From Candidatus Enterousia sp. (GTDB taxonomy: Bacteria > Pseudomonadota > Alphaproteobacteria > Rs-D84), in the NCBI GenBank assembly GCA_045634865.1, contig JAZRBB010000003.1, positions 203,082 through 267,081 on the forward strand: DNA of 64,000 nt. Direction: 5' to 3'. A program made the position numbers and the translations under genes. This document shows positions 19,902 to 51,985 of this stretch, piece by piece. The notes under the pieces were generated by a model, which saw only the letters and a list, made by a program, of their open reading frames with translations, searched no databases and was not told where the DNA came from. The first letter of the stretch is position 1, and each line of letters opens with the position of its first letter.

Positions 19902-21332
19902 ATGAGATGGTATTCATTGTGTTTTTATTGTTGCTTTGTAACTGCTACAAGCAGTGCTTTGTGTGAAACTATAATAACAGTCAATGCAAATGAAATTCGC
20001 AATGTGTTTGAGCCATTGACACAAAACACAACATTATACAATTATGGAACAATAACTTCTGATATAATAACTAATGGTAATAATTTTGATGTTTATAATT
20101 ATGGCACGATTAGCGGAACAATTGATGCAGACAGTGGTTTTGTTAACCAACACATTGATTCGATTGACGCATTTCATAGCGTGACTTTGGATAGCGGTAA
20201 CGATTTATATATTTATATAAATGGTGTGCATGACATTACTTTAACAGATTTGATGAATCTGGGGAATGCAGAAAATTTTGATATTACTAATTCTTCAATT
20301 GTGATTGATGATTTGGTTGCGTGGAATAATTGGGGGCAATCGGCAGAATTAGACAGAACAAACACATTGATTTTTTCGAGTCCGAGTGTTGTGCAAGCCG
20401 GTGATGTCATAAATCATATCGGTGAAAACCTTAACATTTCTGTTGAAGGGTTAGATCCTGCTTATATACCAGAACTTTCGTCAAGTTATGGTTCGTGGAT
20501 TATAAATTTTGGTCCAAATCCTAATTATCCGTTGTCTAATGTGTTGAATAGTGTCAATAGCATTGAAGATAAAAATCGTATCAAGCACTTGTCGTATCAT
20601 TTTAATCCAAACATATTGATGAACCCAATTAAGACAATGAACAAGTTTATGATGTCAAATATATTGTCATATAAAAACTCTCTATACATCGGTTTTTCTG
20701 GTTCTTATGTTATATCTGATAAGACTGATGCATATGGATTTGATTTAAGTGTCAATGGGAAATATGATGATGTATATTTACGCGCAGCTTTCAATTTTCA
20801 CGATTTTAGTTATCAAGATGATTACAATAATTTTGATGGTTTGATGTATGGTTTTAATGTTGGCGCCAAAACATATTTTGATAATTTGTGGCTTGATGGA
20901 ACATTGGGTTTGTCGTTTATTGACTTTGATGCGGATAATATTTTGTATAACGATGAAACCAGAAACAATCCGTTTGGTATGGGTTTATATGGGACAGTAA
21001 ATTTAGGTTATGATTATGTTTTGACAACTGATTTGACTGTTTCGCCATTTGTTGGGCCATCGATTGCAACATATTGGGTATATGATATCAATGACACAGA
21101 TTATAATATTCGTGGCGGTGGCAAGGTTGAGTATTCTTTTGTTGTGGATAATATCAAATACGAATATAGCGGAATAGGCACAATCAGCGTCAACGGTGAT
21201 TTATACGGTACATTAAAAGTTGGCTTTGTGTCTGAAATAGATAATGCAGGGTTGGCACTTGGTTTTGATGTATTGAAAACAGACGAAGAAACTGGATATA
21301 AAATATCTGTCAGTGGCAATATCACTTTTTAA
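19902..21332 (+). CDS. Autotransporter-like outer-membrane protein (short Gly/Thr/Asn-rich passenger + beta-domain)
   Basis: 476 aa. Passenger repeats YNYGTITSDIITNGNNFDVYNYGTISGTIDAD. C-terminal region is rich in alternating aromatic residues and ends SGNITF, the terminal Phe typical of OMP/autotransporter barrels. N-terminal start uncertain. Confidence 0.45.
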   Translation: MRWYSLCFYCCFVTATSSALCETIITVNANEIRNVFEPLTQNTTLYNYGTITSDIITNGNNFDVYNYGTISGTIDADSGFVNQHIDSIDAFHSVTLDSGNDLYIYINGVHDITLTDLMNLGNAENFDITNSSIVIDDLVAWNNWGQSAELDRTNTLIFSSPSVVQAGDVINHIGENLNISVEGLDPAYIPELSSSYGSWIINFGPNPNYPLSNVLNSVNSIEDKNRIKHLSYHFNPNILMNPIKTMNKFMMSNILSYKNSLYIGFSGSYVISDKTDAYGFDLSVNGKYDDVYLRAAFNFHDFSYQDDYNNFDGLMYGFNVGAKTYFDNLWLDGTLGLSFIDFDADNILYNDETRNNPFGMGLYGTVNLGYDYVLTTDLTVSPFVGPSIATYWVYDINDTDYNIRGGGKVEYSFVVDNIKYEYSGIGTISVNGDLYGTLKVGFVSEIDNAGLALGFDVLKTDEETGYKISVSGNITF

Positions 21333-31597: not shown

Positions 31598-31701
31598 AGT
31601 TTTTATCCTGTTTTTTGTATTACAAATTGCAGTATAACACGTTTTTTCGATTCGTGCGATTTTATCTTGATTATTTTTTTGATAAAATCGTTTTTTAAGT
31701 C

Positions 31702-31730
31702 TTGCACAGATTCGGTCAAATTGTTATAAT
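31702..31730 (+). promoter_or_regulatory. Near-consensus sigma70 promoter (TTGCAC-17 nt-TATAAT) for the secretin operon
   Basis: TTGCAC at 31702-31707, a 17-nt spacer and TATAAT at 31725-31730. RBS AGGAAAGGA precedes ATG 31762. Confidence 0.55.
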
Positions 31731-31761
31731 TGAGTATATTATATCAAGGAAAGGAAAAAAT

Positions 31762-32652
31762 ATGTTCCATAGATTTTGCGTGTTTACGGCTATTGCTTGT
31801 TTGTCTGGTGTCGCATGGGGGGCTGAAAATTTGCCCCAGGTTGCTACTTCAGAGGTGTTTTATGATTCTGAACCTGCTGAATATGTGATGGAGGAGGCAG
31901 AGGTTGTTGCTCCTATGCCTGTTCGTCAAAAGGCTCCTGTGTGGCCATTGGCGGGCTCTGATGCAGATGTAAAATTGGAATGTGGTGACATGGGGTGTTC
32001 GGGTGAAGAATCGATGATTGTGACCAAGGTTGGTAATGGGCTGATTATGGAAAACAATATAATCACTCGTGGTACCGGTTGGTCTGGTGGTCCAGATATC
32101 GAAAATGGAATGATGATACCTGCTGGTTTTGATAATGAATGCGAAAATAATGCGGAAATGCCGTTAATGCGTCGTGAAATGTTGGAAGATGATGGTGGTT
32201 CGGTATTGTCTGTTTCGCGTAGTCCGCGTAAAAAATGTAATAAAAATGCTGATTCTTATGCTGTTTTTGCTGAACGTGCTGGATTCAAGGCTGAAAAATC
32301 TTGCAATAAAGATATGTCAGTTGGCGAAGGCGAAATAGATGTTTCTGTAAACTCAGACGAAAATAATGATGCAGAAGCGCCTGCTGTTATGCGTGATCAG
32401 GTTCGTTCTTGGGTCGTTGCCAGCGGTCAGACTTTGCGTCAGGTTTTACAATCTTGGTGTGATAAAGAAGGTTGGGATTTGGTTTGGACGACATCGCGTG
32501 AATATCCGATTGAGGCTAGCGCTGTATTCAAGGGACGTTTCGTTGATGTTGCGTCGGCTTTGATACGTAATTTTGAACGTGCAACACCAGTGCCTTATGC
32601 AAAATTTTATAAAGGGAATCGTGTGATAGTTGTTTCGACTTCGGAAGAATAA
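31762..32652 (+). CDS. Secreted protein with a C-terminal TcpQ/PilL-like domain (candidate secretin accessory factor or pilotin)
   Basis: Signal peptide MFHRFCVFTAIACLSGVAWGA. Acidic, Cys-containing middle region. The C-terminal block GQTLRQVLQSWCDKEGWDLVWTTSREYPIEASAVFKGRFVDVASALI resembles the TcpQ domain found in PilL and TcpQ. Sits immediately upstream of a lipoprotein secretin, as in tcpQ-tcpC. Start taken at MFHRF inside ORF 31702..32652. Confidence 0.4.
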   Translation: MFHRFCVFTAIACLSGVAWGAENLPQVATSEVFYDSEPAEYVMEEAEVVAPMPVRQKAPVWPLAGSDADVKLECGDMGCSGEESMIVTKVGNGLIMENNIITRGTGWSGGPDIENGMMIPAGFDNECENNAEMPLMRREMLEDDGGSVLSVSRSPRKKCNKNADSYAVFAERAGFKAEKSCNKDMSVGEGEIDVSVNSDENNDAEAPAVMRDQVRSWVVASGQTLRQVLQSWCDKEGWDLVWTTSREYPIEASAVFKGRFVDVASALIRNFERATPVPYAKFYKGNRVIVVSTSEE

Positions 32653-32686
32653 TAATTATCATGCAAGTGATTCGTAGGAGATAAAA

Positions 32687-34291
32687 ATGAAAATGCGTTT
32701 AAATATGTTTTTAATAGGAACAGTATTCGCGGGATTGTTGGCAGGATGCACATTGCAAGAATCTGCCAAGGTATCTGCGTCTGTGGATCAGAATTTTGTA
32801 AAAGCATATGAAGCATTTGAAATGGCGAAAAATCCGCGCGCCAAGGTGGCTAGTGGTGATACAGTTTCTATGTCAGAGGGGGTTTGGTTGGGCAATAAAT
32901 CTACGGTTCTTGAACACAAAAACTCGTTGCCTGCAAAGTTCGAGACAGATTCGGGGATTACTATATTATTAAATGAACCTGTGACATTACAGGTGTTGGC
33001 AAATGATATAAATTCAATTACAGGAATTCCTGTAAAGATTGATAATCAGGTTGATGATGAAAAATTACGAAAGACTGTTGATGTTGCATATACTGGTAAG
33101 TTGTCTGGATTGTTATCTCAGATTGCTACAGATTTAGATTTGTTGTGGTATTATGATAAAGATTCAATTGTGTTCTATGAAACAGAAACGCGTACATATA
33201 CATTATATGCCTTGGGTACAGATGTATCGTATCAATCTTCTGTGCAAACGGATGATGGAAATCAGGTTTCTTTGGAATCAACCTTGAAAGAGTGGGACGA
33301 GGTGGAGGCGACAATTACTTCTATTGTTAATTCATCAAAGAATTCTCAATTTACAGTATCGCGCAGTTTGGGGACGATCACAGTGACTGCGTCACCATCT
33401 GTGCTAAATCGTGTTTCTGATTATATTGCAAAACAGAACAGACGTTTGTCACAACTTGTGACCATTGATGTTAAGGTTTTACAGGTATCTTTGTCTAACG
33501 AATCTGCATTTGGCTTGAATTTGGCTGCGGCAATCAATTCTGCGACAGGTCTGAACATTGTTGCAAATCCAAAAAATAATCTTTCTACGACCGAGGCTAG
33601 TTCTATGAATGTTGCGGTATTGTCTAATACTGTCGCGGAAGCGGTGACAGGCATTGAAGATATGTATACTGCTGATCAAATAAAAAATGGTTCCATGGCA
33701 AGGTTGGCCGGTACAAATGCTTTGATAGAGGCTTTGGCAAAGCAGGGCAAAGTATCGTTAGTGACAAATGTTGGGGTAACGACACGTAATAATCGTGTTG
33801 CCCCTGTGACAAATACCAGAACAACAGGATATATCAAGCGATTCGAATCCAGAACATTTACGACTGTGGAATCTAGTACTGTTGACCAAGATAATTTGGA
33901 AACTGGGTTTTCAATGCAGTTGTTGCCGAATATTTTGGAAAACGGCAAGATATTGTTGTTATTCAAAATGTCAATTCGTGAATTGTTAAAGATGTCGACA
34001 CAAACAATTGGTGCGGTGACATTGCAATTGCCAGAGGTTGAAGAGCGCTCGTTCATGCAGGAAGTTATTATGGAGTCTGGTCAAATGTTGGTTGTATCTG
34101 GGTTCGAGAAACAAAAGAACGATGATACACGTTATGGTTTGGGCGATCCAGACTTTATGGCATTGTCTGGTTCGCGTGAAACCGCTGCGTCACGTGAAGT
34201 GTTGGTTGTTATCTTGACGCCACAAGTTTTGGTCAGCCCGATGGATGCAGAGCGCAATATCCAGCAACATTGGGGCGCACCATTGAATTAA
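32687..34291 (+). CDS. Lipoprotein secretin of the type IVb-pilus class (BfpB/TcpC/PilN-like)
   Basis: Lipobox LLAGC-T. N0-like domain (ITILLNEPVTLQVLANDINSITGIPVKID). Secretin-domain blocks are present (FSMQLLPNILENGKILLLFKMS; FMQEVIMESGQMLVVSGFEK; C-terminal EVLVVILTPQVLV). The C-terminal loop YGLGDPDFMALSGS is non-canonical, as in the lipoprotein secretin subfamily. Confidence 0.7.
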   Translation: MKMRLNMFLIGTVFAGLLAGCTLQESAKVSASVDQNFVKAYEAFEMAKNPRAKVASGDTVSMSEGVWLGNKSTVLEHKNSLPAKFETDSGITILLNEPVTLQVLANDINSITGIPVKIDNQVDDEKLRKTVDVAYTGKLSGLLSQIATDLDLLWYYDKDSIVFYETETRTYTLYALGTDVSYQSSVQTDDGNQVSLESTLKEWDEVEATITSIVNSSKNSQFTVSRSLGTITVTASPSVLNRVSDYIAKQNRRLSQLVTIDVKVLQVSLSNESAFGLNLAAAINSATGLNIVANPKNNLSTTEASSMNVAVLSNTVAEAVTGIEDMYTADQIKNGSMARLAGTNALIEALAKQGKVSLVTNVGVTTRNNRVAPVTNTRTTGYIKRFESRTFTTVESSTVDQDNLETGFSMQLLPNILENGKILLLFKMSIRELLKMSTQTIGAVTLQLPEVEERSFMQEVIMESGQMLVVSGFEKQKNDDTRYGLGDPDFMALSGSRETAASREVLVVILTPQVLVSPMDAERNIQQHWGAPLN

Positions 34292-34391
34292 AGGCGATAA
34301 AAAAATAATTAGGTTTTATTTTCTAAGTGATATAATGTTATGCAAGAAAGAGAAATGAAAGGAGCAATAAAGTGCTGAAACCCGCAGAAAC

Positions 34392-34426
<35 letters not shown>

Positions 34427-34577
34427 TAGTTTTTGCCGAGCTTTTTTAGGCATAGTTTTTTCGTATATTTGTTGTCTTGGGACATCTTTTGCTGTTGAAA
34501 TTTTAGATTTAAATACTGCGTTACAAAATACATATCGTGCCTGTGTTGGTATCGATGATAAATTATCAGATTATAAA

Positions 34578-35384
34578 ATGTTGGCTGGGATAAATACAGG
34601 GGTCCAGGCTGTGGGAACAGTTGCTGGTGTTGGTGCAACTGCTGTCGGTATTGTAAAAGCATCAAAAGATAAAGAAATAGAAGAATATGAAAAGCTGATG
34701 GCAAAATTGAAAGAAAAGTTAGGTACACAACAAGAATCGAGTGAGTTGGAGAAAAACGAGTTTTATACAAAATTTATCGCACAATATAAACCAACAAATG
34801 CTGAAGATGCTAAAACAAAGCTTACATCACAAATGACACAAAAGACCAAAGAATCCAAAAAACTTGGGAATTGGCGAACTGGATTGATGGTTGGTGCTAC
34901 TGTGACCAATGTTGCAGGTGCTATATTGGCATCGCAAAGCGGTCAGAACACAGATTTACAAGTAATGGTAAAAAATTGTTTGGAAAGTATAGATACATTA
35001 AATCTGTCGATTGGTCAGGCACGTATAAATGGTGAAGATGTATCAGAAGCCAGAGACATCGCATCAGCGTGTGGCGAATACAGGAATGTTGATGTGTCTT
35101 CGATATCAAAACGTGCGACCGGTGCTATGGCTGCATCTATTGTGGGTACAACAACTGGATTTACGGGAACTGTGTTATCCGGTGTTGCTAATACAGATAA
35201 AATACGTAATGACAATACAGAGAGTGGTAAAAAGAAAGAAAAAGATTTGAATACAGCATCGAATGTGATGGCTGGTGCGACGACCGCGGCATCTGCTGTA
35301 TCAACAGTGTTTTCTGGAACACAAATTGCAGCGATAAAACGTGTTGCAAATGTAGCATCTAAGTGTGAGGGGGGATTGAAATGA
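34578..35384 (+). CDS. Secreted Ala/Gly/Thr-rich protein, paralog A; in this sequence the signal-peptide region upstream (34428-34577) is open in the same frame but has no start codon
   Basis: ORF-track ORF MLAGINTG... The in-frame upstream translation (..FLGIVFRIFGCLGTSFAVEILDLNTALQNTYRACVGIDDKLSDYK) aligns with the signal peptide and N-terminus of paralog B (43885). The only start-like signal is RBS AAAGGAG + GTG at 34372, in the +1 frame relative to the body, reading through (CA)15 to a stop at 34447. Four conserved Cys are shared with paralog B. Confidence 0.55.
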   Translation: MLAGINTGVQAVGTVAGVGATAVGIVKASKDKEIEEYEKLMAKLKEKLGTQQESSELEKNEFYTKFIAQYKPTNAEDAKTKLTSQMTQKTKESKKLGNWRTGLMVGATVTNVAGAILASQSGQNTDLQVMVKNCLESIDTLNLSIGQARINGEDVSEARDIASACGEYRNVDVSSISKRATGAMAASIVGTTTGFTGTVLSGVANTDKIRNDNTESGKKKEKDLNTASNVMAGATTAASAVSTVFSGTQIAAIKRVANVASKCEGGLK

Positions 35385-38300
35385 TGAAAAATATTATAGC
35401 AGGCTTGTTTTTAGTTTTTTATATTGTCCCTGGATTTTGTATTGATGCTTTTTATATGGACAATGTTGCCCCACGCCAAGCAATCGAAAACGCAATTCAT
35501 GATGAATATGTGGTTCGTGTCAGCGGTGATGCTGTACAAAAAGCAATAGAAACCATAACCCAGGATATTGGTGAAAGACTTGAATTAACACAGTTGTATA
35601 CTTCTTGGATGCAAGATGGTTCGCCATTGACTTTTGGCGCTTTGGGAAATATTTGTGATATTGCTTTCAAGGGAAACATCGATAAATGTCAGAGGTTCGC
35701 TAGTGCATTATTGAAAAACAAAGCATTGCGTCTGTATTCTGTGTGTGGTGCAGATAAAGGTAAAACTGGTGGAACAGAACGTTGTGTCGAAGATTTCTTT
35801 GCCAAGACAAAGGTGGATACGACTGCTGGACGCACTCTGGCATCAGAATATGTGCGTATTAAATATAACGATGCTTCTTTGGAATGTGATAAGAACGTAA
35901 AAATAAACAGGACTGGTAGTGATTATATGCGGTGTGTTTCGCAAAGTGCAAATAATGTTTTTTATGAATTTAAGTTTGATAGTTTGGCTGATGTTCATAT
36001 GGATACAAATCGTGAAGATGCGATTTTTGGCGCAATTTGCCGTTTACATGGGCTGGAATATGACAGAACAATGTTAAGTGGTTATGATAACCCCAGATGC
36101 AAAACACAAGACAAGAATATATGTGCGAAAGTAAATGAAACGCTGAAACCTTTTGGTTTTGAATCTAAGATTGGTGCTCAAAATTGGGGACCGGATTATG
36201 GTGCACAAATGACAAGTCCTGATTGCGTAATAAACGCATTATGCACAGCACGAAATAAAAAAGATTTGCACAGTGCTTTTGGATTGGATCCGTTTGAATT
36301 CCAAAAATCAGCAGTCCAAGTGAATCGTAATGAATATTTGGAAGATATGCTTGCCAATTATGTACAAAGTAAGGTTGGCAATATAACCAGTTTTGAATGT
36401 AATGCCACACATCAATGTATCTATACCGACGGTAAAAAGAGTGATGTTTTGGGTTGTAAAGTCAATGGCAAAGACGTTGATTTTGTGTTTAAAGATTTGA
36501 GTGAATGGAGCCGTTATCGCGATAACGCAGGGCGTCAGGTTATTCAGTGCAAGATTGTTGGTGGCGAATTTACTGGTCAAGATTGTGTATATTTGACGCA
36601 TGAGCAATGTGATAAGTTGGCAAAACAAACAATTCCAGGCTGTCCAGAATGTACAAATGTTGTATGGGATACCAAACATAATATATGCAAATTAAAAACA
36701 AATGAAATACTTAATGATATAGAAAAAGCCGAAAAAGTTGCTATGATGGCTGTGGGTTCTGCTGCTGCGGTTGCTACAAGTGTGGGTATTGCTTATGCTG
36801 CATATAAAACGGGTTCTGTGTTGATGTTAGTTCCTACTTTGTTGGCGGGGGCGAACGCTGTTGGTTCTGTTATGGAATTGGGTGCAACATTAAAAATATT
36901 GGGCGTTACAGAAGATTTTGCACGTGAATCACAAAATTGCAAGACCAGTGCTTGTGCAGATAATTTAGTAGAAAAATGGTTGCAACGTCTTTCTAACCTG
37001 AGGAGTGATTTATCAGAAGCAGAATATACTTTTGTTAACAAAGAATTGGCCAGATTGATAGGTTTGACGTCTGAACAGTTTGGAAAAAAGATGTTTACAA
37101 ATTTGGTAAAAAGATATACCACAGATAATACAGTTAAAAACGACATTTCGTCCAAGAAAGCGCGCAAAAAAATGGATGAAATGCTGAAATCACCAGATTT
37201 GTTAAGCGCAAATGCCAAGGGATTCTTTGACAGCGAAAGCTGGGAACCAGAACAGATTTGGCGTGCGGTTGGCGTTGGTTTGCAGATTGCATCAACATTG
37301 GGCAGTGTGGCGTATGGTTTCTGGGCTAATCATCAGGCTTATAAGGCATATGATGATGAAACAACACAAATGTTGCGTGATGCTTTGACAGATGGAAAGA
37401 ATAATCTTACACCAGAAGAACGTAGAGAAATAATCAAGTATTTAATGGAGGATGGTACACCAGTCAAAATTAATGATAATATCGAGATACCAGGCGATAT
37501 AAAGTTGGCTGCACAAGTTGCAAAACAAGACGGAACACTCACATCTATAACTGGAGAGACGAAGTATGTAGATATAAATGATTTGGATGATTATATGCGG
37601 GAGAAATATGGTTCCCAAGTATTTGTTCAATATGATAAAGATATGAAAGCAGTTTATACAGCTAACTTTGGGTATTATCAAGATGGTGCAGATTTTGTAG
37701 AAAGCGCATTGATACAAGAAGGTATCCCTTATAGTAGGCAAGGCAATGCCATAATAATTTTAGAAACAGATTTGGAAGCAATTGGTGTAGCAACGGTTGC
37801 TCCAGATGATCCGATGATAACGAAATTAGTAAAGGTTCATAAACCGTCAGTAGATGAATTACATGCTCAGGGTATAACTACTGAAGTTGCACTAAGTGAT
37901 TTTTTTAACGAAAGCAAAAAACAACGAGCTGAGGTAAGTCTTATTTTTGGAGATTCGATAGATAAGGTAGCAGTTAATGATTATGCAAAGAAAGTCAAAG
38001 ATGATGTAATAAATATTATTGCAAATAATGAAACGTTGTCTGCACTTGCGGTAAATTATGACAATTTATCAACAGATAAAAAAATGGATTTTATCAACGG
38101 TTTATTGTCAGAATATAATGCAGGTAAGGCTGTTTCCTGTGTAGACGGATATTGTGAACTTGCTAATTTAGCCCCCGGTGTTTTGGGGGAGCATTTGTCG
38201 GGTAGTGATAAAATTTATTTGTCATCCAAAGAGCTGGCTAACGCATCTTTGCCCGATGTTTTGGATGTTGCATTTCATGAAAATAATCATCGTCTTGATG

Positions 38301-38494
38301 CTATCGGGAAAGGTTTTCTGAACAATGAACAACGTAGAATTAGTAGCATTACTGGCGGGTTAAGTGGAACAAATATTGATGCATATTTGTCTGATTTTAC
38401 AGAGCAGGTATCGTATGCAATTAGTAACCAGTTTCAACAAAAGGGTTTTACTGAAGATTTAAATAAAGCAATTAAACGTGTGCAAGGCTTTTAA
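35381..38494 (+). CDS. Large (1037 aa) secreted/membrane-inserting Cys-rich protein, unknown function
   Basis: N-terminal signal-like segment. The first ~420 aa contain about 38 Cys. Central hydrophobic helical hairpins (VAMMAVGSAAAVATSVGIAYAAY; VLMLVPTLLAGANAVGSVMELGA; IWRAVGVGLQIASTLGSVAYGFWA). The ~400-aa C-terminal domain contains HENNH. Start overlaps the upstream stop (ATGA). Confidence 0.5.
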   Translation: MMKNIIAGLFLVFYIVPGFCIDAFYMDNVAPRQAIENAIHDEYVVRVSGDAVQKAIETITQDIGERLELTQLYTSWMQDGSPLTFGALGNICDIAFKGNIDKCQRFASALLKNKALRLYSVCGADKGKTGGTERCVEDFFAKTKVDTTAGRTLASEYVRIKYNDASLECDKNVKINRTGSDYMRCVSQSANNVFYEFKFDSLADVHMDTNREDAIFGAICRLHGLEYDRTMLSGYDNPRCKTQDKNICAKVNETLKPFGFESKIGAQNWGPDYGAQMTSPDCVINALCTARNKKDLHSAFGLDPFEFQKSAVQVNRNEYLEDMLANYVQSKVGNITSFECNATHQCIYTDGKKSDVLGCKVNGKDVDFVFKDLSEWSRYRDNAGRQVIQCKIVGGEFTGQDCVYLTHEQCDKLAKQTIPGCPECTNVVWDTKHNICKLKTNEILNDIEKAEKVAMMAVGSAAAVATSVGIAYAAYKTGSVLMLVPTLLAGANAVGSVMELGATLKILGVTEDFARESQNCKTSACADNLVEKWLQRLSNLRSDLSEAEYTFVNKELARLIGLTSEQFGKKMFTNLVKRYTTDNTVKNDISSKKARKKMDEMLKSPDLLSANAKGFFDSESWEPEQIWRAVGVGLQIASTLGSVAYGFWANHQAYKAYDDETTQMLRDALTDGKNNLTPEERREIIKYLMEDGTPVKINDNIEIPGDIKLAAQVAKQDGTLTSITGETKYVDINDLDDYMREKYGSQVFVQYDKDMKAVYTANFGYYQDGADFVESALIQEGIPYSRQGNAIIILETDLEAIGVATVAPDDPMITKLVKVHKPSVDELHAQGITTEVALSDFFNESKKQRAEVSLIFGDSIDKVAVNDYAKKVKDDVINIIANNETLSALAVNYDNLSTDKKMDFINGLLSEYNAGKAVSCVDGYCELANLAPGVLGEHLSGSDKIYLSSKELANASLPDVLDVAFHENNHRLDAIGKGFLNNEQRRISSITGGLSGTNIDAYLSDFTEQVSYAISNQFQQKGFTEDLNKAIKRVQGF

Positions 38495-38606
38495 AAAACA
38501 ACAGTCTACCTCCAGCTTCATGGACGTCTTTATCTTGTTCTCTTTTTAGGCTATAGTTCACAATGACCAAAAACTTATAAATTGCAATTTTGTTTGAGTT
38601 AAAAAA

Positions 38607-38632
38607 ACCGTTCGATTGAACGGTTTTTTAAT
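38607..38632. terminator. Bidirectional rho-independent terminator (end of the secretin operon, + strand; end of rpsT, - strand)
   Basis: AACCGTTC-gatt-GAACGGTT hairpin flanked by A7 and T6. Confidence 0.65.
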
Positions 38633-38655
38633 TCTGATAAAAGCACAACATTTAA

Positions 38656-39647: not shown

Positions 39648-40454
39648 ATGAAATATTTTGTTTCTGTGTTGGTTATTGCTATGTTCGGTTTTGGCGCAAA
39701 TGCCGCACAAAATGGGCGTCCGGCTATGGCAAAGAATATTATGTCTGCACCAAGGTATACTGCGTCTGTGAATCAGATATCTGGAAGTACAGCAAAGATT
39801 GGTGTAAAGACTGGTGCAAACACCGATGAAACAGCGCAACAAACAGATGAATCAGCGGAAGAGGCTGAAGAAGCAGCGGTTGTTGATATGCGCGAAGCAG
39901 AACGCAATGCATGTATCAATAATAATATCGGTGTTGGTAATACTTTTGTGTGGGCTTCTAAATACAGCGATACATCGAATTATGCAAATATGACCGAAGA
40001 TGCGGAGCATCCCGAAAATAATGTGTGTTTTGTGCGTGTAGAATTAAATTCTACGAACGAATCGCGTATAAAAGTATCTGACATTGAACCAAAGTATTTT
40101 GTGTGGGGCGAACCGATTAAATGTGGTGGCTGGGTTAGCAAGAAAGAAATGGAAAAACGTATATTAGAAGCCAGAAAAGGTGCACGTATTGGTGGTATTG
40201 TGGCCAGTACTGTTGGTGGTTTGGGACTTGGGGTCGGCGCCATGGAATTATTCGGTAACAGATTGATTGGTGGCAAGGTGGAAGGCCAAAAAGGTGTGGA
40301 TGAAAAAGAATTATACAAGGCACAGTTGGCCAAAGATGAAAATAAAGAATACATAGCTGACTTGAAGGTGATGGTGGAAGCGTGCCAAGATGGAACCAGT
40401 TATATTAGTGATTGTGACTTGTACGAAGAATTATATAGGTCGGTTGCTAAATAG
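39648..40454 (+). CDS. Secreted Cys-containing protein, unknown function
   Basis: Signal peptide MKYFVSVLVIAMFGFGANA. Acidic stretch, Gly-rich hydrophobic segment (IGGIVASTVGGLGLGVGAMELFG) and 6 Cys. Confidence 0.4.
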   Translation: MKYFVSVLVIAMFGFGANAAQNGRPAMAKNIMSAPRYTASVNQISGSTAKIGVKTGANTDETAQQTDESAEEAEEAAVVDMREAERNACINNNIGVGNTFVWASKYSDTSNYANMTEDAEHPENNVCFVRVELNSTNESRIKVSDIEPKYFVWGEPIKCGGWVSKKEMEKRILEARKGARIGGIVASTVGGLGLGVGAMELFGNRLIGGKVEGQKGVDEKELYKAQLAKDENKEYIADLKVMVEACQDGTSYISDCDLYEELYRSVAK

Positions 40455-40471
40455 TAGATATGGGGTGTAAG

Positions 40472-41059
40472 ATGAAAAAGTATGTTGTTTTGTTTTTAAT
40501 GTGTTTGCCAATGGTGTCATTTGGGGCGCCATCTGTGCGTGCCCTTGGAGCTGGTGCTGTTGTTGGTGCGTCTGGGGCGACAGCAAGTAAAATAACACCA
40601 GCAAAAGTAGGCAGTACACCGAGTACAAGTAGTGTCGCGCGTGTTGGTTCTTTGCGTGCAAAGGCTACTACGGTTGGTACCCCAAGTGTTGTTTCTGGTG
40701 CTACTGGACGTTTTCCGGTAATTTCTACGGCCAAGTTTTATAATACCACAGCGACACCGCGTCCAATTAGTTCTGTATCTAATACTTCCATTATAAATAC
40801 AGAAGAAAATTTGGATGCCCTTACACAAAGGGTTGAAAATATAGAAAATTTGCAAGGTAATACCGATGTTGTTAACACAGTAAAAAATGTGTCGAATTTG
40901 GAAGGTAGTACAAATATCGTTAATACCGTCAAAGATAACAAAGATAGTATAGAAGAATTGAACAAAAATGCAGATACTGTTTTAGTGTCGGGTTCAGGCA
41001 ATCCTTTTACCGGAAATCCACAAAATGAAAATCGTGCTTGGATTTGGGTTGAGAAATAG
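40472..41059 (+). CDS. Secreted Ala/Ser/Thr/Gly-rich surface protein with tandem 17-aa repeats
   Basis: Signal peptide MKKYVVLFLMCLPMVSFGA and a low-complexity AGAVVGASGATASK region. Two tandem repeats NLQGNTDVVNTVKNVS / NLEGSTNIVNTVKDNK. Confidence 0.4.
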   Translation: MKKYVVLFLMCLPMVSFGAPSVRALGAGAVVGASGATASKITPAKVGSTPSTSSVARVGSLRAKATTVGTPSVVSGATGRFPVISTAKFYNTTATPRPISSVSNTSIINTEENLDALTQRVENIENLQGNTDVVNTVKNVSNLEGSTNIVNTVKDNKDSIEELNKNADTVLVSGSGNPFTGNPQNENRAWIWVEK

Positions 41060-43738: not shown

Positions 43739-43767
43739 ACACACCCGCAAGCAGGCGGGTGTTTTTT
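43739..43767 (+). terminator. Rho-independent terminator after dnaA
   Basis: ACACCCGC-aagcag-GCGGGTGT hairpin followed by T6. Confidence 0.65.
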
Positions 43768-43779
43768 ACGATTTTTTCA

Positions 43780-43818
43780 GGTTCCCCGCCAGTGGCGGGG
43801 AACCTTTCTCGGTTCAAA
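43780..43818. repeat. GC-rich perfect palindrome GGTTCCCCGCC-agt-GGCGGGGAACC plus TTTCTCGGTTCA tail (REP-like dispersed repeat, copy 1)
   Basis: 11-bp perfect stem. Related copies occur at 60885-60901 and 61055-61077. The tail 12-mer TTTCTCGGTTCA recurs at 5678-5689. Confidence 0.8.
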
Positions 43819-43884
43819 AAAAAACATTTTGTTAAACATAAAAAATATGATAAAATACAACCTGATAAAAGGGAGCGAAAGGGT

Positions 43885-44820
43885 ATGAAAAAATTATCTT
43901 TTGTATTGTTGGCTTTGTTGACATGTCCATCATATGCAACGGTATATGATTTAGATGTCGCAATGAACAATGTTCGTAATGCATGCAGTGGTATAAATTC
44001 CAAAATGGACCATCTGAAATTGATGGCTGGTATAAATACCGGTATCAGCGCGGCGGGAACTGTGACTGGTGCTGTGGCACTTGGAACAGGTATTGCAAAG
44101 GCACAGACGGATGATGCGATTGAAACTATACAGAAAATGTATGAAAAATTTAAGCCCACAAAACCAGAAAACGCATCAAGCCAAGCTGATATTGATAGGG
44201 CACCGGAAAACTTCAAAAAAATATTAGAAAAGTATGCGCATAATATGAAAGATGCTGGCGATGTTGCTATTAAAGCAGCAGAACAAGAATCAAAAACATT
44301 GGGTAATGTTAGAACCGGTATGTTGGCTGCGAATACAGCAACCAGCGTTGCGGGTGCTGTGATTTCAAGTCAGAACAAAGTAAATGGTAGTATCAAGGAC
44401 GCAATTGATAACTGTATTTCTGCCACAGATGATTTGCGTGAGAGTATGATGCAGGCACGTCTTGATGGGTATGATACAATGGATGCAAAACGCATAGTAG
44501 ATGCGTGCAGTGAATATAAATTTGCGGATTTATCAAAGATAAATAAATTGGCAACTGGTTCAACAGTGACATCCAGTATAGGTGCTGTTGCAGGTGGAAT
44601 AGGAACAATAACTAGTGCTGTGGCAAATACAGATTCGACAAGAAACGATAACAGTAAAGAAGGTATAGAAAAAGAAAAGAATCTGAATACAGCATCGAAT
44701 GTATTGTCTGGTGTGACGACAGCGACATCGGCGGTATCAACAATATTAAACGGTGTTCAAATAGCAACGATAAAGAAAGTAGTATCTATATCCGAGAAAT
44801 GTGAAAAGGAGATACAATAA
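43885..44820 (+). CDS. Secreted Ala/Gly/Thr-rich protein, paralog B of the 34578 gene
   Basis: Signal peptide MKKLSFVLLALLTCPSYA. AGINTGISAAGTVTGAVALGTGIAKAQ core. C-terminal NTDSTRNDNSKEGIEKEKNLNTASNVLSGVTTATSAVSTIL...KCEKE is collinear with paralog A, including 4 conserved Cys. Confidence 0.6.
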   Translation: MKKLSFVLLALLTCPSYATVYDLDVAMNNVRNACSGINSKMDHLKLMAGINTGISAAGTVTGAVALGTGIAKAQTDDAIETIQKMYEKFKPTKPENASSQADIDRAPENFKKILEKYAHNMKDAGDVAIKAAEQESKTLGNVRTGMLAANTATSVAGAVISSQNKVNGSIKDAIDNCISATDDLRESMMQARLDGYDTMDAKRIVDACSEYKFADLSKINKLATGSTVTSSIGAVAGGIGTITSAVANTDSTRNDNSKEGIEKEKNLNTASNVLSGVTTATSAVSTILNGVQIATIKKVVSISEKCEKEIQ

Positions 44821-45434
44821 TGAAAAAGTTTTTAATTGCATTTTTGTTGTCTTGTATGTGCTTGATGCCTCTGGTTGCAAAGGCTTCAAATGAATCAGAA
44901 ATTTGTTATGAATATTTAGGTAAAGATGGAGGCGGGTTATTCGGTATTATGTCTAAATATTTGTCCGATGGTAACGGGCATTGGACAGAAAACGGAGAGT
45001 CAGCGTTTGATTTTTTTGAGACTAAAATGACAGAGGGTAAAGAATCTCGGGGTGTTGCTAGTATAACATGTAGCGACCTTCTGGATGTTTGTATCGAGGC
45101 AAAATGGGTAGATAAAGCTGGTAAGGCTAAATGTAGCGCTTTTGCTGGAGATTTGTATAAAGCATGGACTCTCGGAAAAAAAGATTCAAATAAGAATGGT
45201 AAAAAATCTTCGGATATACTAAAAAGCGCTATTGAAACGTATTGTGAAAACCAAGGCGGTGTCGATTTTATAATGGAACAATGTGAAAATTATAAAAGAG
45301 ATGTATCCAGACCAGAGGTTTTAAACTGGCAACTATATTATAGTACGTATGCTCAGTTTAACGATTGTGCACGATTATATGGTTATGCTTTTACAGCGTC
45401 TAAAAAGGGTGGGTGTCACAAAATTAAAAAATAA
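44820..45434 (+). CDS. Secreted Cys-rich protein (204 aa), translationally coupled to paralog B
   Basis: The stop and start codons overlap (TAATG). Signal peptide MKKFLIAFLLSCMCLMPLVAKA. 10 Cys. Confidence 0.45.
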   Translation: MKKFLIAFLLSCMCLMPLVAKASNESEICYEYLGKDGGGLFGIMSKYLSDGNGHWTENGESAFDFFETKMTEGKESRGVASITCSDLLDVCIEAKWVDKAGKAKCSAFAGDLYKAWTLGKKDSNKNGKKSSDILKSAIETYCENQGGVDFIMEQCENYKRDVSRPEVLNWQLYYSTYAQFNDCARLYGYAFTASKKGGCHKIKK

Positions 45435-51517: not shown

Positions 51518-51985
51518 GTGATAATGAGACAAGAATCCGGACGTTCAATGATTGAAATGATTGGTGTGTTGGCTATAATGGCTATTATAACAGCAGGTGC
51601 TTTTGCGCTGATTTCTACGGCTTTTCATACACAGAAACGGGCGCGTGTGACAGATGATGTTGCAAATATTGTGACAGGTGTGCGCAGTTTATTGGGTGAA
51701 TATGATGACTTTTCCAATATAGACAATTCAACTATTTTTGGTGCCATCGCGGTCAGTAATAAAAATCCGTATGGTGGAACATATGAATTGGCGGTTGATG
51801 CGTCAAATGCACGCAGATTTGTCGTAAGTATAAACGGATTATCTAAATCTGATTGTGAAGGTTTGCTCATGAAGGCATGGACTGATTCAATCGGATACGA
51901 AGAATCAAATCACAAAGAGAGTGGTGCAACAGGTAAGTGTGTGGACGGCAATAAAAACGTTGTGTCTATTACATATGGCGAATAG
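51518..51985 (+). CDS. Type IV pilin / pseudopilin-like protein (orphan)
   Basis: Prepilin-type leader MIMRQESG followed by RSMIEMIGVLAIMAIITAGAFALIS, with Glu at +5 and a hydrophobic alpha1 helix. A C-terminal Cys pair about 28 aa apart (SDCEGLL...GKCVDG) looks like a pilin D-region disulfide loop. Confidence 0.55.
   Translation: MIMRQESGRSMIEMIGVLAIMAIITAGAFALISTAFHTQKRARVTDDVANIVTGVRSLLGEYDDFSNIDNSTIFGAIAVSNKNPYGGTYELAVDASNARRFVVSINGLSKSDCEGLLMKAWTDSIGYEESNHKESGATGKCVDGNKNVVSITYGE

Follow-up and report, generated by a model that had tools for sequence, protein, structure and literature searches.

A conserved type IVb-class secretin pair and a mobile two-gene cassette adjoin at a hypervariable site in the core chromosome of a Candidatus Enterousia-like gut alphaproteobacterium

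TcpF and CofJ are examples of soluble proteins that leave the cell by way of type IVb pilus systems, and contingency loci that switch by simple-sequence repeats (SSRs) are familiar from host-adapted Haemophilus, Neisseria, Helicobacter and Campylobacter. We describe here a locus at positions 31,702 to 38,632 of a 64-kb stretch of DNA (hereafter the window; G+C ~38%) from Candidatus Enterousia sp. (GenBank assembly GCA_045634865.1, contig JAZRBB010000003.1), where four co-directional genes lie between a divergent suf operon and a convergent rpsT gene. The combination present there, of a type IVb-type secretin pair, predicted SSR phase variation and a polymorphic toxin-like architecture in an unstudied reduced-genome lineage, is new, while the kinds of component are already known. 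The locus proves to be a composite of two units and not one new secretion system: a conserved pair of genes for a secretin and its TcpQ-like partner (genes 1 and 2), followed by a cassette (genes 3 and 4) that has its own signals and its own distribution.

The window comes from the core chromosome of a gut alphaproteobacterium of the Rs-D84 (Candidatus Enterousia-like) group whose genome is <1 Mb, and the housekeeping genes around the locus include gatCAB, ruvX, sufBC, rpsT, plsY, dprA, dnaA, dnaJ, a gyrB/parE-type topoisomerase subunit gene, uvrC and dnaN. Rs-D84 is an order of the GTDB whose members are described as non-respiring bacteria that have no flagella, probably rely on a partner or host and have genomes of <1 Mb (PMC12306168). 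Rs-D84 and Enterousia occur widely in the guts of ruminants, horses, birds and humans, and interaction with the host or partner is the gap addressed here (PMC12306168). We found nothing in the literature on secretion systems of Rs-D84. The visible genome amounts to ~100 kb, i.e. ~10% of the whole, which limits every search for assembly genes reported below.

A conserved secretin pair, a hypervariable slot and a mobile cassette

The features of the locus are as follows, in window coordinates.

31702..31730, + strand: promoter of the TcpQ-secretin pair, TTGCAC (31702-31707), a 17-nt spacer and the extended -10 TGtTATAAT (31722-31730); 10/12 matches plus TG
31762..32652, + strand: gene 1, secreted BfpG/TcpQ-family secretin partner with a signal peptide (PF10671; PDB 9u5s chain R)
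32687..34291, + strand: gene 2, lipoprotein secretin of the type IVb pilus (BfpB/PilN/TcpC) class (lipobox LLAGC, PF00263, TIGR02520, 9u5s_A)
34328..34336, + strand: extended -10 element TGaTATAAT of the gene 3-gene 4 cassette, recurring ahead of the (AC)n leader in the related loci L002, L011, L014, L023 and L027
34372..35384, + strand: gene 3, predicted phase-variable secreted all-helical protein of ~315 aa (frame analysis, family alignment, structure model)
34394..34423, + strand: (AC)15 slipped-strand tract in the gene 3 leader, after the conserved leader GCTGAAACCCGCAGAAACCT; the sole such tract in 64 kb
35381..38494, + strand: gene 4, modular 1037-aa protein, reading frame intact (reading frame, alignment, hydropathy and motif comparison)
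38607..38632, no strand assigned: bidirectional intrinsic terminator (A-run, hairpin, T-run), common to the convergent rpsT gene (sequence)

An earlier note on this DNA had taken genes 1 and 2 for a TcpQ/PilL-like protein and a lipoprotein secretin of the BfpB/TcpC/PilN class, and profile searches bear out both assignments, each above its cut-off. Gene 1 scores 66.2 bits against Pfam TcpQ PF10671 (cut-off 27, E 2.8e-18) and its C-terminus matches the BfpG chain of PDB entry 9u5s (9u5s_R, E 2.3e-14); an N0-like domain (aa 210-295) is preceded by a variable acidic N-terminal extension of ~190 aa. Gene 2, with its lipobox LLAGC, scores 49.7 bits against Pfam Secretin PF00263 (cut-off 27.5) over aa 349-515 and has BfpB (9u5s_A, E 2e-40) as its sole PDB sequence match. 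The best NCBIfam model for gene 2 is the PilN family TIGR02520, where its score of 251 bits falls under the equivalog cut-off of 287.65, and it is therefore PilN-related and not an equivalog.

Secretin relatives number in the hundreds at 79-100% identity, the named ones being mostly Alphaproteobacteria bacterium or Candidatus Enterousia with one Muribaculaceae; exact look-ups of proteins from the window itself returned no record for the secretin or for P0001. A scan of species-representative genomes gave 276 species with a relative, and 80 loci of these were retrieved, mostly from rumen or gut metagenome-assembled genomes (MAGs) under such names, together with a few bins labelled Bacteroides fragilis or Muribaculaceae; the comparison set in all came to ~170 related loci. 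The gene order sufB-p178-tcpQ-secretin-[slot]-rpsT-plsY-p268-(p199)-dprA-dnaA is found in all 80 genome loci, a gene 1 homologue stands upstream of the secretin in 81 of the 83 loci extending that far, and the identity of the secretin over 83 loci is 78-95%. Its median identity (81.5%) is level with that of ribosomal protein S20 (81.4%) and compares with 76.6% for SufB and 60.8% for DnaA, a comparison that carries a bias as the loci were picked by secretin similarity. The TcpQ-secretin pair is a strongly conserved core unit at a fixed chromosomal site in the examined Rs-D84/Enterousia-like genomes. The promoter at 31702-31730, which had been called from its near-consensus hexamers, is the top promoter-like site of a region in which such sites show no excess (33 observed vs 26 +/- 5 by chance). 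Its hexamers and 17-nt spacer are nearly invariant across 24 species amid flanking intergenic DNA that varies, which makes the call stronger than the consensus match alone.

The space after the secretin is a hypervariable slot. The distance from the secretin stop to rpsT ranges among loci from ~60 bp to 4.4 kb; in the 64 loci with both genes the slot is empty (<300 bp) in 20, holds 300-1500 bp in 22 and >1500 bp in another 22, while five loci are rearranged and 15 contigs stop within 2.7 kb past the secretin. The nearest relative, L005, has 95% secretin and 96% DnaA identity and yet differs in its slot, where a distant gene 3 homologue is followed by two trypsin-like genes. The clearest slot genes, those of recurring families, encode signal-peptide proteins, many of them extremely Cys-rich (91 Cys in 882 aa, 84 in 1013 aa and 81 in 936 aa in other loci), and the notion of cargo-like genes beside the secretin holds up, in that the same position in relatives is occupied by many unrelated secreted proteins, often Cys-rich. 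Gene 3 homologues in other slots have overlapping partners from quite different families, another slot family has C-termini ...FIWFN, and the slot of L058 contains a pilin-like gene. The Cys-rich slot proteins at L035 10439-13087, L052 6491-9532 and L064 11705-14515 (880-1010 aa with 81-91 Cys, ~9-10% of residues) constitute a separate family in which the C-terminus is conserved. The variable slot probably breaks MAG assemblies, via strain heterogeneity, and the locus also marks break points in assemblies of Rs-D84 genomes. Contigs end soon (a few hundred bases) past the secretin stop in L008, L013, L018, L031, L032, L039, L051, L054, L065, L067, L071, L072, L080 and L085.

In the window the slot is filled by genes 3 and 4, which are an accessory, independent and mobile two-gene cassette. 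The start of gene 4 overlaps the stop of gene 3 by the 4 nt ATGA; of 25 detectable gene 4 relatives, four have readable context, and each of these stands behind a gene 3 homologue of 294-322 aa with the identical 4-nt overlap. Neither TcpQ nor a secretin was found within 10 kb of four cassette copies at different housekeeping loci. In six of the eight (AC)n cases considered in the next section, an extended -10 (TGnTATAAT) is located 35-45 nt ahead of the start, and in L011 and L027 it comes after a terminator hairpin. Having its own -10, start codon, leader and (AC)n module, the cassette brings its own transcription and translation signals. No terminator was found between secretin and cassette in the window, so that read-through is possible, though not required. 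A further cassette stands after dnaA:

43885..45434, + strand: second cassette, a gene 3 paralogue (42% identity) and an abutting secreted Cys-rich partner (sequence comparison)

This paralogue occupies the open reading frame (ORF) 43759-44820, with a likely ATG at 43885, and its 204-aa partner lies at 44820-45434; no CA tract is found in this second cassette. Cassettes are present at the same post-dnaA site also in the relatives L005, L011 and L024.

The earlier note had read the four genes as one operon, and this is rejected, because rpsT directly follows the pair in 20 of 64 species and the cassette occurs at secretin-free loci with its own -10: the pair is the universal core and the cassette is separate. 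The bidirectional terminator that was proposed to close the cluster stands, with an A-run, hairpin and T-run; the wider stretch 38590-38650, these runs included, folds at -20.4 kcal/mol and was missed by a simple terminator scanner.

The same observations bear on the main rival to a functional connection between the two units, juxtaposition at an insertion hot spot. The pair would then have no function beyond a type IV pilus, used in adhesion or DNA uptake and involving a solitary pilin; the slot would be no more than a permissive hot spot, and the products of genes 3 and 4 would either remain periplasmic or outer-membrane proteins or be released in vesicles or on lysis. This accords with the slots that are empty in 20 of the 64 species, with cassettes at secretin-free unrelated loci and after dnaA, with the cassette's own extended -10 element, and with the conservation of a pilin-like gene (below) and the presence of dprA in the same conserved neighbourhood. 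The recurrence across many species of slot families that are signal-peptide, mostly Cys-rich proteins argues instead for a functional link, and the visible regions of these <1 Mb genomes hold no other outer-membrane export route, bar one autotransporter-like gene. On balance we consider pure juxtaposition rather unlikely.

Upstream of the pair, between the divergent p178/suf genes and gene 1, lies one more conserved element:

31631..31663, no strand assigned: conserved intergenic block AGTATAACA ... CGATTCGTGCGATTTT, kept in 24 species while its surroundings vary

This block may be a divergent promoter or operator. GATTCG is present both in the block and in the invariant promoter spacer (31708-31724), and the conserved block, the invariant spacer and the hexamer common to both suggest a shared operator for a putative regulator. 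On the far side of rpsT, a conserved secreted pair, p268 and p199, lies between plsY and dprA (window 39648-41059, + strand); p268 has a glycine-zipper-like C-terminal segment, and p199 ends in ...AWIWVEK, similar to the ...FIWFN ends of the slot-protein family mentioned above.

The (AC)n leader and the two cassette proteins

The frame of gene 3 is open from just past the (AC)15 tract through 35384. The only plausible start is a GTG at 34372, preceded by the ribosome-binding site AAGGAG, and its frame is not that of this long ORF; the two frames would fuse at n = 14 or 17 (one unit less or two more), and with n = 15 the gene is predicted to be OFF as assembled. Scanning 1.65 Mb of related sequence for (AC)n tracts with n >= 6 returned eight, all of n = 10-15, and ahead of all eight stands the leader GCTGAAA(C/G)CCGCAGAAA(C/T)CT, with a signal-peptide hydrophobic core after the tract. 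In the homologues P0146, P0164, P0205 and P0261 the tract is read through in frame as (Thr-His)n before the signal peptide; the copy in L002 (n = 14, in another start frame) is also OFF. The (AC)n leaders serve at least four different downstream protein families, and the ~20-nt leader with (AC)10-14 stands before signal peptides unrelated to gene 3 at L011 20512, L014 16809, L022 3961, L023 11860, L027 11760 and L033 18472. Because leader and tract precede the signal peptides of gene-3-unrelated proteins too, the start codon, leader and tract together appear to form a portable phase-variation unit. Gene 3 thus has the properties of an SSR contingency gene, in that unit number sets the frame and tract length is polymorphic (n = 10-15) at homologous leaders among relatives, and the phase variability read earlier from the (CA)15 tract is supported by the frame logic, the homologous tracts and the in-frame read-through in homologues. 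A chance or assembly artefact as the origin of the tract is ruled out by the conserved leader and the eight homologous tracts. Gene 4 is probably translationally coupled to gene 3, because of the ATGA overlap, and would be switched together with it.

The gene 3 family has >1000 members at E <= 0.001, the few that are labelled being called only 'hypothetical protein', and no Pfam domain was matched. Common to the family are a signal peptide, four invariant Cys and four Gly/Ala/Thr-rich segments, and the AlphaFold model is all-alpha, a bundle of very long helices with a predicted local distance difference test score (pLDDT) of 73. A fold search with this model matched generic or designed four-helix bundles only, so that gene 3 is not assignable to ClyA-type proteins or translocators, and its alignment profile gave only noise against PDB sequences. 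Profile comparison shows no relation between genes 3 and 4, despite their similar Gly/Ala-rich helices.

Gene 4 is intact at 1037 aa, as first described, and begins with a signal peptide. A Cys-rich part then spans aa ~30-440, a hydrophobic hairpin aa 453-498 and a conserved WEPEQxWR helix aa 621-647; beyond these comes a C-terminal region that is variable and poor in Cys. Where three central hydrophobic hairpins had been proposed, we find one strong hairpin (453-471, 480-498) and one weaker helix (629-647, hydrophobicity 1.27). Relatives align over residues ~115-650 only, and P0002 is 80% identical over residues 1-711 with no alignment reported beyond. The invariant positions are mostly Cys; 23-38 Cys precede the WEPEQxWR motif in the family, and the C-terminal parts contain only 6 in 5,926 residues (0.10%) vs 1.5% in 15 housekeeping proteins of the window. 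The C-terminal domain of gene 4 (~837-1032) carries HENNH at residue 966, where it had been noted before. HExxH is a motif of zinc peptidases. The domain with this motif recurs in a 972-aa homologue, in small proteins (one of 240 aa with a signal peptide) and in a 2003-aa protein, with the pattern h-x-HExxH ... GFLNxEQ ... TEQ(V/A)S kept; HE(N/S/V)xH and the downstream GFLNxEQ are conserved in P0268, P0270, P0272 and P0273, a part in which the structure model is of low confidence. Pfam matched none of these proteins, and neither Pfam nor PDB returned a match for the domain of gene 4. Four of the 25 relatives have weak DnaJ-like C-termini, and an SpvC-like PF03536 domain precomputed for the homologue P0016 was not reproduced and is dropped as evidence. 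Structure models and remote homology searches of both cassette proteins assigned neither a fold nor a family: the gene 4 model is poor (pLDDT 54) and confident only for Cys-rich alpha/beta repeats, the fold search returned no structural neighbours for it, and its alignment profile matched PDB sequences only at the level of noise.

These features make gene 4 a modular protein whose architecture, with a binding-like region, hydrophobic helices and an exchangeable C-terminal domain, resembles that of modular or polymorphic toxins. As in polymorphic toxins, the N-terminal part is conserved and C-terminal domains are swapped between close relatives; neither a downstream immunity gene nor a recognised toxin domain accompanies this pattern, no sequence or fold homology joins gene 4 to the CNF/PMT/DNT family, and none of the tests placed it in any other known toxin family. 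Two other roles for gene 4 can be weighed against the same features. It could be a resident inner-membrane protein, in which a periplasmic Cys-rich sensor is joined through three spanning helices to a variable C-terminus (with the HExxH motif or J-domain-like) acting in the bacterial cytoplasm. Three hydrophobic helices would indeed put the C-terminus in the cytoplasm, where the J-domain-like C-termini of relatives would be at home, but Cys is depleted from the C-terminal parts (0.10%) relative to cytoplasmic proteins of the same genome (1.5%), the third helix is weakly hydrophobic (1.27), C-terminal domains are exchanged among close relatives, the HExxH-motif domain also occurs stand-alone with a signal peptide, and genes under phase variation typically encode surface or secreted products; we think this role highly improbable. 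Gene 4 could also be an interbacterial polymorphic toxin, bacteriocin-like or of the contact-dependent inhibition (CDI) type, directed against competitors with gene 3 as its helper. The conserved N-terminal and variable C-terminal parts, and small unknown ORFs after some homologues (L003, L004), are in line with this. In the window, however, no ORF for a cognate immunity protein fits between gene 4 and the terminator, the homologues in L001 and L002 have no candidate immunity gene behind them, and Pfam scans of gene 4 detected no known toxin or delivery domain, interbacterial ones included, which makes it the least probable of the roles considered here.

Pilus components and a possible export route

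No pilus, type II secretion system (T2SS) or type IV secretion system assembly genes were found anywhere in the 64-kb window, which extends to 30 kb on either side of the secretin, and no complete type IV pilus or T2SS gene set lies beside the locus within it. Gsp genes are likewise missing from the window, and no cluster of pilin, ATPase, platform and peptidase genes surrounds the secretin there or within 10 kb of it in the 80 genome loci. T2SS-E Walker A and A24-peptidase motifs were not found in the window, in 87 secretin or cassette loci or in 80 pilin loci (within 10 kb, on the ~10% of the genome that is visible), so that the first of these motifs is absent from every locus. The earlier note's finding that assembly genes are missing in and near the cluster is thereby extended to relatives. 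One pilin-like gene is nevertheless present in the same window:

51524..51985, + strand: solitary type IV pilin-like gene, 153 aa, MRQESG|RSMIEMIGVLAIMAIITAGAF..., with a C-terminal Cys pair (prepilin-type N-terminus)

The encoded protein has G|RSMIE followed by a hydrophobic helix, the Arg at +1 being unusual, and matches Pfam N_methyl at E 0.002 and 18 bits, under the cut-off of 21.2. The gene lies 13 kb downstream of the secretin locus with a 3-nt gap between it and rluD; it has 471 metagenomic relatives and, wherever a long locus was examined, is the one gene between uvrC and rluD, in the order uvrC|pilin|rluD|asmA|dnaN. The lineage conserves the secretin, its BfpG/TcpQ partner and the pilin-like protein as dispersed single genes. 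In L078, L153 and L167 a rearrangement has placed the secretin no more than a few kb from the pilin region, and a pilin-rluD-asmA or gyrB-dnaJ-uvrC-pilin segment follows it there in place of rpsT. Besides the secretin, the one outer-membrane export device visible in the window is a 476-aa protein (19902-21332, + strand) with a weak autotransporter beta-domain match (26.8 bits vs a cut-off of 26).

Because the pilin-like gene is conserved in the same window, the absence of pilus machinery is unproven, and the earlier description of a stripped-down module free of any pilus is not borne out. That description amounted to a self-sufficient secretin pore which, without pilus or pseudopilus machinery, releases the proteins encoded next to it. 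The missing assembly genes, the genome size of <1 Mb, the lack of any report of type IV pili for Rs-D84 and the unusually high conservation of the secretin would all fit such a pore. To our knowledge, all characterised secretins operate together with an inner-membrane platform. The pilin-like protein with its prepilin-type leader is conserved in the window and in relatives, which would imply a prepilin peptidase and an assembly system, at the least, elsewhere in the genome, and only ~10% of the genome is visible. A self-sufficient pore is therefore, in our judgement, quite improbable.

The reading that we prefer, at a probability of about 45% for the whole, is a composite locus whose secretin exports, and may deliver, the cassette proteins. 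Slipped-strand mispairing in the (AC)n tract would shift the reading frame of gene 3 (n = 15 OFF, n = 14 or 17 ON) and with it the expression of gene 4. Both products would cross the inner membrane via Sec, since each has a signal peptide, and disulfide bonds would form in the periplasm in the Cys-rich N-terminal part of gene 4 and in the 4-Cys gene 3 protein. They would then leave the cell via the secretin, which together with the solitary pilin-like protein would make up a dispersed type IVb-pilus or T2SS-like apparatus. Outside, gene 3 would engage a target membrane through its glycine-zipper-like helices and gene 4 through its hydrophobic hairpin, and the variable, Cys-depleted C-terminal domain of gene 4 would be presented or delivered, here a putative HExxH domain and in relatives others, including J-domain-like ones. 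By analogy with described systems we infer that slot-encoded proteins, genes 3 and 4 among them, may leave through this secretin, which is plausible; gene 3 would act as a membrane-active helper, and the C-terminus of gene 4 may be the delivered effector.

Several points weigh against this reading. Direct evidence of secretin transport of slot proteins is absent, and the cassette occurs far from any secretin in four other genomes. The slot is empty in a third of species, and so the conserved role of the secretin is not the export of this cassette specifically. Neither an ATPase nor a platform protein nor a prepilin peptidase was found in the ~100 kb of visible genome or, among 160 related loci, at distances of up to 10 kb from the secretin or pilin. 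Genes 3 and 4 have no fold or family assignment from fold and profile searches; the membrane-delivery step is drawn from architecture, because the model of gene 4 is poor, and the peptidase role of HExxH is read from the motif. PMC12306168, on Rs-D84 genomes, reports type IV pili for another lineage only and not for Rs-D84.

A bolder version, which we hold to be improbable, is that Rs-D84 has reduced a type IVb pilus to a minimal export device of secretin, BfpG/TcpQ-like ring and one pilin-like protein, serving as a general route for changing, phase-variable, disulfide-rich toxin-like proteins, with the gene 3 family as a new universal class of helper or translocator. If true, this secretin-centred device would mean that an obligate gut symbiont or parasite possesses a system of secretion and delivery not described before. 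The locus in any case supplies candidates: a secretin pair conserved like a ribosomal protein, a hypervariable slot of secreted Cys-rich proteins, and a putative portable (CA)n leader switch. It also supplies two large uncharacterised families, the helical 4-Cys helper (>1000 members) and its modular partner with exchangeable C-terminal domains. The question of the Rs-D84 lifestyle becomes testable, namely what is secreted, by which route and onto which target.

Comparison with known systems

The closest counterparts of genes 1 and 2 are BfpG and BfpB of the bundle-forming pilus of enteropathogenic Escherichia coli and TcpQ and TcpC of the Vibrio cholerae toxin-coregulated pilus (TCP), in which the partner gene likewise precedes that of the lipoprotein secretin; the two chains of the BfpB-BfpG complex 9u5s match gene 2 and gene 1, respectively. 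Secretins of the type IVb class are described as lipoproteins, the same as gene 2 (PMC12531336). In contrast to these pairs, the one described here has no adjoining pilin, ATPase, platform or peptidase genes and is isolated in the core chromosome of a genome of <1 Mb; its TcpQ-like protein has the ~190-aa N-terminal extension, and compared with NCBIfam PilN its secretin stays under the equivalog cut-off.

Type IVb pilus systems secrete TcpF (TCP) and CofJ (colonization factor antigen III, CFA/III), there are T2SS substrates whose genes adjoin those of their machinery, and here, too, predicted Sec-exported proteins adjoin a type IVb-class secretin; this is an analogy from general knowledge in which periplasmic folding is presumed. 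Unlike TcpF and CofJ, to which genes 3 and 4 have no sequence or fold relation, the cargo position is here hypervariable between species and export is predicted.

The switch resembles the contingency loci of Haemophilus, Neisseria, Helicobacter and Campylobacter in that a repeat in the 5' coding region would set the frame by its unit number and tract length varies among relatives. It differs from them in that a CA dinucleotide lies between the start codon and the signal-peptide hydrophobic core, that a conserved ~20-nt leader carries the tract for at least four unrelated secreted-protein families, and that the host is an uncultured reduced-genome alphaproteobacterial order.

With the single-chain AB toxins CNF1, PMT and DNT and with polymorphic toxins, gene 4 shares an N-terminal binding-like region, central hydrophobic helices and an exchangeable C-terminus. 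It has no detectable sequence or structural similarity to CNF1, PMT or DNT, and unlike these and polymorphic toxins it combines a very Cys-rich N-terminal region with an obligatory upstream partner gene and no immunity gene.

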